A stretch of DNA of 30,960 bases from Candidatus Heimdallarchaeota archaeon. Lineage in GTDB: Archaea; Asgardarchaeota; Heimdallarchaeia; Heimdallarchaeales; Heimdallarchaeaceae. The stretch is taken from positions 1-30,960 of the forward strand of contig DXJF01000123.1 of NCBI GenBank assembly GCA_019057375.1. The letters are read 5' to 3'. Position 1 is the stretch's first letter. Every line of letters begins with the position of its first letter. The notes beneath the pieces were generated by a model. It worked only from the letters and a program-made list of their open reading frames with translations. It searched no databases and was not told the origin of the DNA. Made by a program: the position numbers and the translations under genes. Shown here one piece after another: positions 9,868 through 14,039 of this stretch.

Positions 9868-12501
9868 TTAAGAGAAATCAAGAGTTTTCTGACTTGATGT
9901 TAGAATATCTTTGAGTTCCACTTTCACGCCAATCCGCTTTACATCCCGTAGGGCTTCTTCTAGATAATGTTCCTTGTCGATTTTTTGAACGTCAACGAGA
10001 GTTGGATGTTGAGCTCGTTTGTATAGGGATGAGCTTCCTTCAAGAATTATGAATGGAAATCTTTCAAAATCCTTCCATATTTCATCTAAATTTAGATCCA
10101 TTCTCATAGAATAATCTTCGAGAGCACCGATAGCAGGGGTTTTTGATTTGTAATCTTTTGGATTCCTTCTGATTGGACCAAAAATAGTTGTTTTTTGGAT
10201 AAGCTCTTCTCCAGAAATTTTCTTAAATTCAAGACATAATTCAATCACTTTTCTTCTAGCTTTTTCAAGATCCCCATCTTCTAGAACACATTGCAATGCA
10301 GCTACTTGAACTTCTTTTGCGAATGGTGAAGTATCACTGCGGATTGCTTCAAATCCAATAATTGTAAGGTCACCAGTTACAACGCTGATATAACTGTATC
10401 TTTTCTTCGTTTCAGGGGCAAAAACAATTCTTAAGGCTAGATCAACAAATTCTAATTCCATCTCTTTTGGTAGTTTAGACATGTAAAATTCCAATAATTC
10501 CTGAACCTCAGGAGCATCTGATAACTTAAAAGATTGACCTTCCTTAATTCTTTTTGCTAAGTTAAATACTGTATCTTTGTTGGCAAGTTTTACAAAAATA
10601 CTATCTGTATCTCCATATATCACCTGACATTTGTTATCAGATATTTCTTGCGTCCATTTGTCTACTTTCTTAATATATTCCTTTGCAATACTTGTGATTG
10701 CATTGGAGATTTCGGTATCATAAAAGCGACTTCCTACATAATTATGACTACCATAAAGTGAGTTAGCTGTGACTTTCAGAGCGCTAGATTTAGTCTTTAA
10801 TTTGTGGAGTTCTTTTTCTAATCCTATTTTTTTCTTGGAATCCGTATAAGTTCGTAGATATGTTTCAAGGTCAGAAATTTCTTTCTTTATTTCTTTTCTC
10901 TCCTCCAGAAGACCTCTCATCATCACTCGTATTCCTGTATCAGGTTCGTTACGAAACTTTTTCTCAGGTAATGCCATGGACCCCTCATAGCTTTCACCAC
11001 CAATGTTAAACGCAACCATGATTGATGGAAACATTGATCTAAAATCAGCTATCATGACAGCTTCATGTAAAGTACCTTTTGGAACGAGAACAAAACCTCC
11101 TATTGCCATTGATCTTGTACTCTTTCTGTAGGCTAATTCTTCTCTCGTTGGTTCAGGTGGTATTAATGTATCTTTATGTTTCAGAACTCTAAAAAGTTGA
11201 AATTCTCCTATGTGTCTTGGAGTTGAGTATATCCCCTCAGAAGGGCGAAGACCTACAAGTTTTATAACCTCAACCCATTCTAGCATACCCATTTCGAAGA
11301 ACAAGTGATAGATTATTTTTGAGTCTAGGGTGCAAGAATCAATAAGCTTTTTCTTATAATTCTTCTGATTCTTCAAGTAAACTTTAGACCAATATTGGTT
11401 AATTGCTTCATAATCGGCTTCTCTTTCAATATTCAGAAGTTCTCTGGAGAATTCAGTCAGATTTTTCTTACCAGATTTTGTTCTCAACCATCGGGTACTT
11501 TTAACAAGATCATAGGAAATATAACCTGGGATTCTATAGCCTAAATATCCTACTGGTGGTTTGATTTTAGCATCTTGAAATGGTCCCAGTCTCTCTGAAT
11601 CTAACCCTAGAATTTCCATGCGAGCAATAAGATAAGGTAAAGTTACTTGATTTCCATTAAAAGTAACAATTATTTCTGGTGAAATAGAATGTACTTCATT
11701 GATTAGATCATTAATAAGTTCTCTTTCACAATCATTGTCTTCTTTTTCAAGAAAGAAGTTTTTAGACTCTATATTGATCCCATCTCGACTCCAACTTATA
11801 GACGCTGTAATAATTCTTTGTTTGCTTTCTTCTAGAATACTGGAAAAATTCTTGATTTTTTTACCTTCTTTTGTCAAGGAGTTAATAACAATATTTAGAC
11901 TAAGAATAGTAAATTGAAAAGATTCTCTTTTTTCCATATTCTTAATATTATGAAAATCAGTTTCTATAACTCTCCCAAATTCATGTGATTCTTTCTCTTC
12001 ATAATTAGATATTTCAATCCAATTGAGACTTCTGATATTTGTATCTATAAGAAATCGTGAAACATAAGAAATATCGTTTTCATAGCTTTTAATCCCTTTT
12101 TCTTTTAGTTTATTGCTATATTTATGAATACGCCAAGGATTTCTACCAAGTATTTTGTAAAGAAAAGTTGGTTTATTTTGATAATATTTGTATTTAGTAA
12201 TTTGGTAGTGGTTCTGTATCCAATCCCCAAATTCCTTTTCAGTATAAAGAAGACTTTGAATAGCATTTGTAGTCTCAGCAAGGTCGTCAATATAGAAATA
12301 TGGATAAAAGCCAGTCACATGAATAATCAGAGTCTTATTATCTACTGTCTTCCCTCTTATTCTAACAATAGGTTCTTCAATTTCATTCTCCTTTTCGCGA
12401 ATAAAAAAGTCTAAATCTACTAATAAGAATTCCAAAGGAGAGGGAGTGTCATTCATCTCTCTAACACTTTTCACGAACTGTTGATGTACAATTAATCCCA
12501 C
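9868..12501 (-). CDS. polB: Family B DNA polymerase with degenerate 3'-5' exonuclease motifs
   Basis: Motif A DFRSMFPSI, motif B KVTANSLYG, motif C YGDTDS, KKRY, and C-terminal PIP-like QKTLDFS. Start is GTG 12501 or ATG 12456. Confidence 0.95.
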   Translation of the reverse strand: MGLIVHQQFVKSVREMNDTPSPLEFLLVDLDFFIREKENEIEEPIVRIRGKTVDNKTLIIHVTGFYPYFYIDDLAETTNAIQSLLYTEKEFGDWIQNHYQITKYKYYQNKPTFLYKILGRNPWRIHKYSNKLKEKGIKSYENDISYVSRFLIDTNIRSLNWIEISNYEEKESHEFGRVIETDFHNIKNMEKRESFQFTILSLNIVINSLTKEGKKIKNFSSILEESKQRIITASISWSRDGINIESKNFFLEKEDNDCERELINDLINEVHSISPEIIVTFNGNQVTLPYLIARMEILGLDSERLGPFQDAKIKPPVGYLGYRIPGYISYDLVKSTRWLRTKSGKKNLTEFSRELLNIEREADYEAINQYWSKVYLKNQKNYKKKLIDSCTLDSKIIYHLFFEMGMLEWVEVIKLVGLRPSEGIYSTPRHIGEFQLFRVLKHKDTLIPPEPTREELAYRKSTRSMAIGGFVLVPKGTLHEAVMIADFRSMFPSIMVAFNIGGESYEGSMALPEKKFRNEPDTGIRVMMRGLLEERKEIKKEISDLETYLRTYTDSKKKIGLEKELHKLKTKSSALKVTANSLYGSHNYVGSRFYDTEISNAITSIAKEYIKKVDKWTQEISDNKCQVIYGDTDSIFVKLANKDTVFNLAKRIKEGQSFKLSDAPEVQELLEFYMSKLPKEMELEFVDLALRIVFAPETKKRYSYISVVTGDLTIIGFEAIRSDTSPFAKEVQVAALQCVLEDGDLEKARRKVIELCLEFKKISGEELIQKTTIFGPIRRNPKDYKSKTPAIGALEDYSMRMDLNLDEIWKDFERFPFIILEGSSSLYKRAQHPTLVDVQKIDKEHYLEEALRDVKRIGVKVELKDILTSSQKTLDFS

Positions 12502-12639
12502 CGTGTTATTTAAACTCTTTTTAAATACTAAGGGGGATTTTACGAACCATTTGAAAAAATATCAAGTTTTCAGTATTTAAACCACATTTGTATACGTTAG
12601 ATTTTTAATCTATTAGGTTACATTTTATTATGTTGTTAT

Positions 12640-13017
12640 ATGTCTTCTAGAAGAACACCACCAGATGTGTATAAAAATAAGAAGAAGTTGGAACTATCAG
12701 CTCAGACTAAAAGTGGAACAATTGAAGAAACAATTACCCTAACTAAACCATCTGAAGATGATGATTCTAAGCCTCATTATTGGTTTATACTGATGTTATC
12801 ATTTGGCCAAAGATCAGGATATGTGTATGATCGATCAGGACTACATATACCCGAACCAGATGCCTATGTCTATAGTGTTGAACTATGGAAATTCCAGGGA
12901 GCTACACTTAAAGGAGTAGAAACAGTGTCAAATAGAGTGGACTTTGATTTAGCAGTTAAAACATTTCAGAGTTTACAAGGGGATTTAACTAAACAAAATT
13001 TTAAAATGATTGATTGA
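12640..13017 (+). CDS. Hypothetical protein (125 aa), divergent from polB
   Basis: ATG-start ORF fills the gap with no competing long ORF. No confident family. Confidence 0.6.
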   Translation: MSSRRTPPDVYKNKKKLELSAQTKSGTIEETITLTKPSEDDDSKPHYWFILMLSFGQRSGYVYDRSGLHIPEPDAYVYSVELWKFQGATLKGVETVSNRVDFDLAVKTFQSLQGDLTKQNFKMID

Positions 13018-13022
13018 ATTAG

Positions 13023-13589
13023 TTATATCAGACTTACAACTACTGTAGCTATTATTGGAATAAAAGAGTTCAGAACCATTATGACTATTTTCTTAGGTTG
13101 GTAGAAGAGTTTCTTTAAGTCTCCAAGCCTTGCTTCATCCTTTTGCATAATTTTTATATTGAAATATAGAATTGCTGCGAAAATTATCAAAATAGAAAGT
13201 GTTATACTCAAGATTTTCCATAAAGCGAGTGTTTTATCGAAATAAACAATACTGAAACCATATATTGGTAAAAATCCAATGTAGAAAAACATAATTTGAA
13301 GAGCAATTTGTGCAGAAATTGTTTTGGAAGATTCAATTTTAACTGTGAAAAGGGCTATTTTTGCAGATAAAGATACAGCTGCTAAGACAAAGACTATTGA
13401 TATGGTTACTAATATTACGCCTAAAACTCCCAAACCTACATGTATTCTATGTTTTACAAAACTATTGCGAATCAGTGCTTGTCCTCCTCCTAAAAGTGCA
13501 GCGAAAATAATAGCCCCCAATGGATTGAGTGTTTTTGGTTTTTTAATAATAGGAGCCTTAGTTAGTAGGTCTTTTTCAGAAATTACCAC
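13023..13589 (-). CDS. Hypothetical integral membrane protein (about 5 TM segments)
   Basis: Several hydrophobic stretches. GTG start directly abuts the Nudix gene stop. Confidence 0.7.
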   Translation of the reverse strand: MVISEKDLLTKAPIIKKPKTLNPLGAIIFAALLGGGQALIRNSFVKHRIHVGLGVLGVILVTISIVFVLAAVSLSAKIALFTVKIESSKTISAQIALQIMFFYIGFLPIYGFSIVYFDKTLALWKILSITLSILIIFAAILYFNIKIMQKDEARLGDLKKLFYQPKKIVIMVLNSFIPIIATVVVSLI

Positions 13590-14039
13590 TTAATTCCCCT
13601 CTGAAGGTTCTTTTGCAAGTTCATTTTCGCGTAAATACCTTTCAGCTGCCCTTATAACTCTTCTTGTGTTTTCAAAAGTTAACGTTTTCAAAGCTTCTTC
13701 ATAAGTACACCATCGGAATCCTATATGTTCCTTCGAGATTTTTACTTCAGACGTTGATGATATCCCTATTAGATAAATGACTGTTTTTTTGATTTTCTGA
13801 GAACCTCTTGTGAAATAATAAGTAATTTTATGTTGAAACTCTTCCAAAATGGATATATCTTCTATCCCTGTCTCCTCGAATGCTTCTCTGAGAGCAGCTT
13901 GAATAACAGTTTCCTTCCCCTCTATCCTGCCTTTGGTCAACCCATATCTGTTCTCTGTTATCCTACTTCGTCCATAGTTGAGCAGCAGATAGCGGCCAGA
14001 ATTGTAAATTACAATGCCTGCAGAGGTTTCAAGTTGCAT
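13590..14039 (-). CDS. Nudix hydrolase, asymmetric Ap4A hydrolase (NUDT2-like) type
   Basis: Nudix box GRIEGKETVIQAALREAFEETG, N-terminal SAGIVIY and C-terminal SKEH...WCTYEEA. Confidence 0.85.
   Translation of the reverse strand: MQLETSAGIVIYNSGRYLLLNYGRSRITENRYGLTKGRIEGKETVIQAALREAFEETGIEDISILEEFQHKITYYFTRGSQKIKKTVIYLIGISSTSEVKISKEHIGFRWCTYEEALKTLTFENTRRVIRAAERYLRENELAKEPSEGN

Follow-up and report, generated by a model that had tools for sequence, protein, structure and literature searches.

A B3-lineage family B DNA polymerase with a degenerate proofreading site and a WGR-fold gene neighbour in Heimdallarchaeaceae

The polB locus

We analysed a 30,960-nucleotide stretch of DNA from Candidatus Heimdallarchaeota archaeon (assembly GCA_019057375.1, contig DXJF01000123.1, positions 1 to 30,960 of the forward strand), hereafter the window, which carries on its reverse strand the gene for a full-length family B DNA polymerase (PolB). 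The polymerase site of this protein is intact, and its 3'-5' exonuclease, or proofreading, site has lost most of the residues expected of an active one. A gene for a small protein with a predicted WGR fold is transcribed away from it on the other strand. The features of the locus are listed below; residue numbers here and throughout are those of an 877-residue open frame.

9868..12456, (-): polB, a B3-lineage family B DNA polymerase with an apparently dead exonuclease site; 862 amino acids from the ATG at 12456
11884..11904, (-): degenerate ExoI, LSLNIVI, residues 200-206; Asp replaced by Asn203 and Glu by Val205
11629..11658, (-): degenerate ExoII, NGNQVTLPYL, residues 282-291, aligned with NGDNFDFAYL of the KOD polymerase; catalytic Asp replaced by Thr287
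11320..11337, (-): partly degenerate ExoIII, SCTLDS, residues 389-394, aligned with YSMEDA of KOD; Tyr replaced by Ser389, Asp393 kept
11023..11049, (-): motif A, ADFRSMFPS, residues 485-493; catalytic D486 intact, steric-gate Tyr replaced by Phe491
10750..10776, (-): motif B, KVTANSLYG, residues 576-584; intact, with K576, N580 and G584 invariant and Y583 nearly so
10600..10617, (-): motif C, YGDTDS, residues 629-634; D631 and D633 both intact and invariant
9871..9891, (-): tail resembling a PCNA-interacting peptide (PIP), QKTLDFS, residues 871-877, followed by the stop codon
12457..12639, no strand: intergenic region shared by polB and the WGR-fold gene, A+T-rich, with TTTAAA-type boxes
12640..13017, (+): gene for a stand-alone WGR-fold protein of 125 amino acids, divergent from polB

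The mechanically called open reading frame (9868-12501, (-), 877 amino acids) begins at a GTG at 12501. An earlier note on this DNA had recognized a full-length PolB in it, and the strings that it quoted, among them LSLNIVI, NGNQVTLPYL, SCTLDS and QKTLDFS, are present in the translation. Membership of family B is borne out by Pfam matches above cut-off to the polymerase domain (PF00136, residues 433-857, E 1.3e-35, 123.5 bits) and to the exonuclease domain (PF03104, residues 138-300, E 5.2e-15, 55.9 bits), together with the presence of motifs A, B and C. The AlphaFold (AF2) model of the protein has a predicted local distance difference test score (pLDDT) of 85.8 and a predicted template modelling score (pTM) of 0.81, with residues 1-17 below a pLDDT of 50. 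Orthologues begin with MNDTPSP, and the A+T-rich TTTAAA-type boxes upstream would, on our reading of the sequence, overlap the GTG at 12501. Given these orthologue starts, the confidence profile of the model and the position of the boxes, the true start of polB is probably the ATG at 12456, and the 12457-12639 interval is presumed to be a divergent promoter region.

A degenerate exonuclease site

We assigned the columns of the exonuclease site by HMMER alignment to the KOD polymerase and by MAFFT alignments with exonuclease-intact relatives. An active 3'-5' exonuclease site in archaeal PolB3 combines the DxE of ExoI, the Asp of ExoII and the YxxxD of ExoIII, and of these residues D393 alone is retained here, three of the four carboxylates and the ExoIII Tyr having been lost. 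The earlier note had described all three Exo sites as degenerate; this stands for the ExoI Asp and Glu, the ExoII Asp and the ExoIII Tyr, but not for the ExoIII Asp, which is invariant in 20 of 20 aligned sequences. Columns 203, 205 and 287 are Asp or Glu in 100% of 58 exonuclease-intact relatives and are acidic in 0%, 0% and 9%, respectively, of the 11 members compared from the clade to which this PolB belongs. Because the lost columns are wholly acidic in exonuclease-intact relatives and almost never acidic in the clade, the alignments indicate that the loss is neither a chance event nor a sequencing artefact. The replacements themselves vary inside the clade (N, S, G or K at 203; V, A, T or F at 205; T, V or L at 287), and the ExoII Asp is still present in the branch of the Candidatus Heimdallarchaeum endolithica PR6 genome. 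A six-residue insertion directly after ExoI (GKKIxNFSSIL) is also conserved in the clade.

By the usual criteria the exonuclease site thus reads as dead. The same two ExoI positions were changed in the D141A/E143A variant used to compromise the exonuclease of Thermococcus kodakarensis PolB, a variant that is tolerated at the native locus (PMC13136892).

The polymerase site is retained

The polymerase Asp residues, which the earlier note had called intact, prove to be invariant in the clade alignment (D486, D631 and D633), as are R535, K576 and N580; K539 and Y583 are nearly so. The catalytic and dNTP-binding residues of the polymerase site are thus all in place. The steric gate is altered from Tyr to Phe, and among 84 aligned PolBs this Phe occurs in the crown Heimdallarchaeaceae clade only, where it may tune selectivity for sugar or base.

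Placement within archaeal B3

Among sequences of solved structures, the protein matches the B3 polymerases of Thermococcus and Pyrococcus best (147 bits), followed by the Pyrobaculum B3 enzyme (123 bits, full length), with Pol alpha at 70 bits, Pol delta at 57 and E. coli Pol II at 52; neither a Pol zeta chain nor Sulfolobus B1 (1s5j) is among the 60 matches listed. Structural comparison with Foldseek also ranks KOD first (E 2.5e-47, template modelling (TM) score 0.81 on the target), with Pol delta at rank 49 (TM 0.74). The N terminus had been thought to recall eukaryotic Pol delta or zeta, an impression that the scores do not sustain: the N-terminal 185 residues reach 18.8 and 17.2 bits against archaeal B3 and 18.2 and 15.9 bits against Pol delta and, because these are alike, the region is best read as a generic PolB N-terminal domain.

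An exhaustive HMMER search falls off in steps, from the Heimdallarchaeaceae clade, through about 20 clusters at 30-38% identity (287-515 bits), to ordinary B3 enzymes at no more than 175 bits. The middle tier comprises metagenome-assembled genomes (MAGs) of Asgard archaea labelled Heimdallarchaeota, Borrarchaeum, Sifarchaeum and 'Promethearchaeati'. A maximum-likelihood tree was built from 84 rows under LG+C20 PMSF, with a quick search and SH-like approximate likelihood ratio test support, and was rooted on the genome's own B1 and B2 enzymes. The Heimdallarchaeaceae clade (support 100) is nested in an Asgard clade (support 100) that is sister (97) to a B3 group from Euryarchaeota, Aenigmatarchaeota and Hadarchaeota. 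The exonuclease-dead clade therefore lies among exonuclease-intact Asgard PolBs inside archaeal B3, a position defined relative to a B1 and B2 outgroup in a tree without eukaryotic sequences. These comparisons identify the protein as a B3-lineage enzyme of Heimdallarchaeaceae.

In sequence alignment with KOD, positions of the N-terminal uracil-binding pocket are mostly kept: the equivalents of P36/Y37, P90, E111, I114 and R119 are present (here P67-Y68, P122, E141, I144 and R149), with V93 changed to Ile and F116 to Tyr.

Two other assignments were considered and rejected. The suggestion in the earlier note of an unusual B2 or B3 derivative survives in its B3 half, through the tree and the ranking of structure matches; archaeal PolB2 is set aside because motif C (YGDTDS) keeps its two Asp residues and the ExoIII Asp is present. 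A eukaryotic Delta-like clade is set aside by the order of the bit scores (B3 147, alpha 70, delta 57) and by the lack of C-terminal CysA and CysB modules: as the earlier note had observed, PolB carries no C-terminal Cys cluster and ends at the PIP-like tail.

Bringing sequence, structure model and tree together, we regard the description of the protein as an exonuclease-dead, polymerase-active enzyme derived from B3 as very probably correct.

Conservation and selection

Orthologues of PolB at 47-95% identity are all from MAGs of Heimdallarchaeota or Heimdallarchaeaceae, including AB_125 (OLS31778.1), and from the complete PR6 genome. We sampled 81 Heimdallarchaeia genomes, among which exonuclease-dead polB occurs in 26 of the 28 that belong to the window's family, Heimdallarchaeaceae, nearly always as a single copy, and the two family genomes without it are 72-76% complete. 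Compared with five orthologues at 94-95% identity, the ratio of nonsynonymous to synonymous substitution rates is 0.08-0.11 for the whole protein, 0.09-0.16 for the exonuclease domain and 0.08-0.09 for the polymerase domain. Across the clade, the ratio of exonuclease-domain to polymerase-domain divergence is 1.42, against 1.05-1.31 in exonuclease-intact clades. The whole protein, exonuclease fold included, is under purifying selection. The exonuclease domain has thus been kept as a folded, constrained domain that lacks the catalytic residues, a state resembling that in Pol alpha and Pol zeta, and the comparisons indicate that its inactivation is a trait of the lineage, not the mark of a broken gene, the proofreading site having been lost early in Heimdallarchaeaceae.

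A PIP-like tail predicted to bind PCNA

The C terminus is conserved through the clade as SSQKTLDF. Deeper members of the clade carry tails with canonical PIP spacing (QLTLSSF and QRTLSFF), and QKTLDF is best read as a derived PIP. A predicted complex of PolB residues 828-877 and the PCNA encoded in the same genome has a score of 0.66, and the best of its three controls one of 0.00. As a benchmark, 51 out of 78 solved complexes attain this mark, as do 2 out of 108 mismatched pairs. At least 81% of contacts recur between runs, the partner pLDDT is at least 45, and tail residues 868-876 lie in the classic interdomain-connector pocket (PCNA residues 42-49, 126-131, 233 and 249-256). The model lends support to docking of the QKTLDF tail in this pocket, but PIP and PCNA are a textbook pair, and the score may owe something to resemblance with complexes already solved. 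The PCNA tether proposed in the earlier note accordingly gains from the conservation of the tail and from the predicted complex, but the spacing of the motif is non-canonical.

Close orthologues (94-95% identical) continue after DFS with a further 12-residue tail of Ser, Asn and Lys (DFSSSTSNNNKVSKK). A TAA directly after DFS in the window (9868-9870) removes it. The frame remains tail-like down to about 9830, and the stop codon is for this reason probably a recent point change.

A WGR-fold neighbour

The 125-residue protein encoded divergently from polB has no Pfam match even at E 1, and the Pfam WGR model (PF05406) has no match anywhere in the genome. Its AF2 model (pLDDT 81), however, finds the WGR domains of PARP2 and PARP1 as top matches in Foldseek. 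The 16 best matches in VIA-align are all WGR domains of PARP1, PARP2 or PARP3 (Z 8.3-9.4, root-mean-square deviation (rmsd) 2.5-3.1 over about 90 residues), led by that of PARP2 (Z 9.4, rmsd 3.0 over 92 residues). Below these come 2ra8 (Z 8.2), another PARP2 entry (Z 7.3) and the next unrelated fold (6.5). The nearest clusters in a protein language model are likewise WGR clusters (score 0.80-0.81), which we take as a lead only. According to the titles of the matched structure entries, the WGR domains of PARP1-3 bind DNA breaks and the 5'-phosphate at nicks. The fold is thus common to these domains and the 125-residue protein, but the latter stands alone, lacks a catalytic ADP-ribosyltransferase domain and goes unseen by the Pfam model.

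In each orthologous locus examined, the WGR-fold gene adjoins polB at an unchanged position; its product shares 62-73% identity where PolB shares 47-73%. A profile built on it finds the gene in 26 of the 28 family genomes, the same ones that hold exonuclease-dead polB and always adjacent to it, and gives one marginal match (E 9.8e-4, inside an 861-residue frame) in 52 other Heimdallarchaeia genomes. It has no match at three exonuclease-degenerate loci elsewhere in Asgard archaea (L015, L020 and L062, each with 3-kb flanks). Database homologues are, in 60 of 60 cases, 'hypothetical proteins' of Heimdallarchaeota. The persistent divergent adjacency suggests a functional link between the two genes.

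Synteny holds down to orthologues of 47% identity. The order of the locus is a LarA-like gene, a major facilitator superfamily transporter, an unknown gene, a NUDIX hydrolase, a second unknown gene, the small divergent gene, polB, an ArsR-type regulator, a radical S-adenosylmethionine protein and two TldD/PmbA genes. Besides the WGR-fold gene and the NUDIX hydrolase, this context contains no repair or replication operon. The NUDIX hydrolase (13590-14039) and a 188-residue protein without a Pfam match (13023-13589), both (-), form an abutting pair with adjacent stop and start, and the pair recurs upstream of polB at almost every orthologous locus that was inspected.

Other DNA polymerases of the genome

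The assembly (3.47 Mb, 89% complete) encodes a PolB1 that scores 612 bits against Sulfolobus PolB1 (1s5j), with intact exonuclease motifs (DIEVE, FNGDSFDF and YNGRD) and a canonical C-terminal PIP (QKSLDSWF). This PolB1 (contig C102; L001, 28-2721) has about 50 extra N-terminal residues, of low complexity and rich in Lys, Asn and Ser. A second PolB is B2-like, with a motif C (HGIVDS) of the single-Asp-plus-His pattern; B2 enzymes are defined by one Asp and a conserved His in motif C, by a missing ExoIII and by a D(K/R) motif (PMC7544198). Both PolD subunits (DP1 and DP2) and a Y-family polymerase (PolY) are present as well. The family X polymerase palm (PF14792) was not found, in a search that is insensitive, as control genomes matched only below cut-off. 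The sole match to the stand-alone PolB-type exonuclease (PF10108) in this 89% complete genome is polB itself, below cut-off.

Since PolD and an exonuclease-intact PolB1 are encoded, and the DP1 and DP2 of the congener AB_125 are reported to be active (PMC7544198), proofread replication appears to be covered by other polymerases of the genome, as, in principle, does translesion synthesis. A whole family of Asgard archaea would thus have turned an otherwise universal B3 enzyme into a non-proofreading one while keeping PolD and an exonuclease-intact PolB1.

Proposed role and alternatives

In archaea that contain PolD, B3 is dispensable for bulk replication and carries out strand-displacement synthesis in Okazaki-fragment maturation and the filling of repair patches or gaps. 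The explanation that we find best overall, and that we regard as probable, though by no means secure, is that the Heimdallarchaeaceae enzyme is a proofreading-dead B3, held on PCNA, that acts as a short-tract polymerase at nicks and gaps. PolB would synthesize DNA without self-correction while its QKTLDF tail holds it on PCNA. PolD and PolB1 would cover replication and proofreading, leaving PolB for short tracts at nicks and gaps, namely strand-displacement synthesis in the maturation of Okazaki fragments and the filling of repair patches or gaps. With its exonuclease lost, PolB would tend towards strand displacement instead of idling, and the WGR-fold protein would recognize the nick or gap for PolB. 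For mesophilic sediment archaea that have PolD and an exonuclease-intact PolB1 this short-tract role seems the likeliest, but we are more tentative about the role as such (strand displacement at Okazaki junctions and the filling of gaps or repair patches, with the WGR-fold protein possibly directing it), to which we give slightly less than an even chance. Doubtful, at this stage, is a two-gene module in which the proofreading-dead, PCNA-tethered PolB is recruited or positioned by a stand-alone WGR sensor of nicks and 5'-phosphates.

Several points weigh against this account. The tree rows include neither eukaryotic sequences nor B4-B10 references, and the outgroup branches are long. The tail departs from the canonical Qxx[LIM]xx[FY][FY], the aromatic residue of QKTLDF coming one position early. 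D393 persists in the exonuclease domain along with the acidic residues E212 and E225 (82-91% conserved), so that some residual or alternative nuclease chemistry may be possible. The co-occurrence of polB and the WGR-fold gene carries no statistical weight because one clade amounts to one evolutionary event, and a shared fold, here a modelled one, does not establish that the WGR-fold protein binds DNA. The cellular role is drawn by analogy from distant B3 enzymes of thermophiles, and the genome's exonuclease-intact PolB1, with its canonical PIP, could equally be the enzyme of Okazaki-fragment maturation.

The earlier note had proposed a non-proofreading repair or translesion polymerase paralleling Pol zeta. 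Its exonuclease-dead, polymerase-intact premise agrees with the sequence; translesion synthesis is possible but not favoured. On such a reading PolB would extend mismatched or lesion-paired termini after insertion by a Y-family or B2 enzyme. Pol zeta and Pol alpha likewise combine a dead exonuclease with an intact polymerase, the steric gate and neighbouring residues are altered, a PCNA tether is probable from the model, the operon of the NUDIX hydrolase is a conserved neighbour and T. kodakarensis strains without PolB are sensitive to DNA damage (PMC13136892). The genome, however, already holds two candidate translesion enzymes (the B2-like PolB and PolY), in other respects the polymerase site is the one expected of a high-fidelity B3, the locus offers no damage-response gene context and the solved-structure matches listed reveal no specific relationship to Pol zeta. 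We consider a Pol zeta-like extender unlikely, and favour work at nicks and gaps over translesion synthesis because of the B2-like PolB and PolY of the genome and the WGR fold of the partner gene's product. A role resembling that of Pol alpha, in which PolB would add a short DNA stretch after a eukaryote-like primase and hand off to PolD or PolB1, can appeal to Pol alpha as the classic exonuclease-dead family B polymerase (PMC7544198), to the eukaryote-like primases encoded by the Heimdall clan (PMC12680538) and to the rank of Pol alpha as next-best solved relative after B3 (70 bits). Against it stand the absence of a C-terminal Zn or primase-binding module, the position of PolB in B3 and the absence of a primase gene near the locus. 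PolB moreover carries a PCNA-type tail, which Pol alpha is not known to use, and this role seems quite improbable.

That proofreading persists, through alternative carboxylates in the exonuclease domain or an exonuclease acting in trans, would fit with the purifying selection on that domain, the retention of D393 and the clade-conserved acidic residues E180, E212, E225, E252 and E296. The lost carboxylate positions nevertheless vary within the clade, as expected once constraint is released, and none of the new acidic residues of the domain is invariant in the alignment; we judge retained proofreading to be very improbable. Least credible of all is a eukaryote-like relative of Pol delta or zeta, or a catalytically silent scaffold of the kind that the C-terminal half of Pol epsilon represents. 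The first impression made by the N terminus and the Foldseek match to Pol delta (rank 49, TM 0.74) speak for the former, but the N terminus scores the same against B3 and delta, there is no Cys module, and tree and bit scores point to B3. For a silent scaffold, the polymerase motifs are too well kept, all being intact and conserved.

Relation to known polymerases

The present enzyme shares with archaeal PolB3 (KOD, 9°N, Tgo and Pfu, and the enzyme of Pyrobaculum calidifontis) its domain order, fold, motifs A, B and C and a C-terminal PCNA-binding tail, which is predicted here; the uracil-pocket positions are mostly retained at the sequence level, and coexistence with PolD is common to both. 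It differs from them in lacking the ExoI Asp and Glu, the ExoII Asp and the ExoIII Tyr, in its steric-gate Phe and post-ExoI insertion, in longer fingers (a trait common to the wider Asgard clade), in an identity of about 23-29% and in its WGR-fold gene partner. With archaeal PolB2, such as Sulfolobus Dpo2, a known translesion PolB, it has in common an archaeal family B origin, a degenerate exonuclease site and the company of other PolBs; B2, however, has no ExoIII and a single-Asp motif C, whereas the present enzyme keeps YGDTDS and the ExoIII Asp. To our knowledge B2 is the only recognized exonuclease-degenerate group of PolBs in archaea. The catalytic subunits of Pol alpha and Pol zeta offer functional analogies, with the same inactivated exonuclease fold and active polymerase domain, but the present enzyme has neither a CysA/CysB domain nor an interface for a B subunit, its similarity to them is far below that to B3, and its exonuclease loss is independent and lineage-specific.

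Inactivated exonuclease domains are already known in the family B polymerases Pol alpha, Pol zeta, the C-terminal half of Pol epsilon and archaeal B2 (PMC7544198, PMC4104785). Neither the exonuclease-dead Heimdallarchaeaceae B3 clade nor its WGR neighbour is described in the surveys of archaeal and Asgard PolBs that we consulted in an incomplete literature search (PMC7544198, PMC4104785, PMC12680538, PMC12198294). Exonuclease inactivation was the route by which eukaryotes arrived at the specialized Pol alpha and Pol zeta. If the two-gene module is real, it would be an archaeal family B equivalent of a dedicated gap-filling or Okazaki-maturation polymerase that arose like the eukaryotic division of labour, by inactivation of an exonuclease (as in Pol alpha and Pol zeta), and in archaea closely related to eukaryotes a PARP-type WGR break sensor would be acting together with a polymerase. 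The WGR-fold neighbour is a concrete and testable lead on the use of the enzyme.

Recurrent loss of the exonuclease site

Among the 84 aligned PolBs, the state of the exonuclease site changes between intact and degenerate at least six times. A second exonuclease-degenerate clade of Asgard archaea (L015, L020, L062, P0045 and P0058; 958-999 amino acids) has NIKIA or KVEIT at ExoI and Arg, Thr or Lys in place of the ExoIII Tyr, and a different Heimdallarchaeia family carries it alongside an exonuclease-intact paralogue. An approximately unbiased (AU) test on 42 rows (LG+G4), in which the tested group was named after inspection of the tree, rejects the union of the two Asgard groups (log-likelihood difference 93.3, p-AU 0.00037). 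In B3 enzymes from Bathyarchaeia and Methanomethylicia (L047, L054, L060, L089 and P0068), the exonuclease carboxylates are lost and the polymerase motifs intact, with FSMICYS or LWITCMG at ExoI and Asn in place of the ExoIII Asp. Such independent losses would point to a repeated division of labour among the replicative and repair polymerases of archaea.

Some of the other PolBs in this comparison have features of their own. The complete PR6 genome has no B2-type gene by PF00136, and its sole other PolB found (L092/L093, C1:1893508-1895910) is a 1343-residue open frame whose polymerase match falls into two parts, which may contain an intein. An Asgard-type PolB (L015) comes from a MAG labelled Bathyarchaeia and an archaeal B3-like PolB (L084) from one labelled as a Nitrospirae bacterium; these placements could be binning errors or gene transfers.

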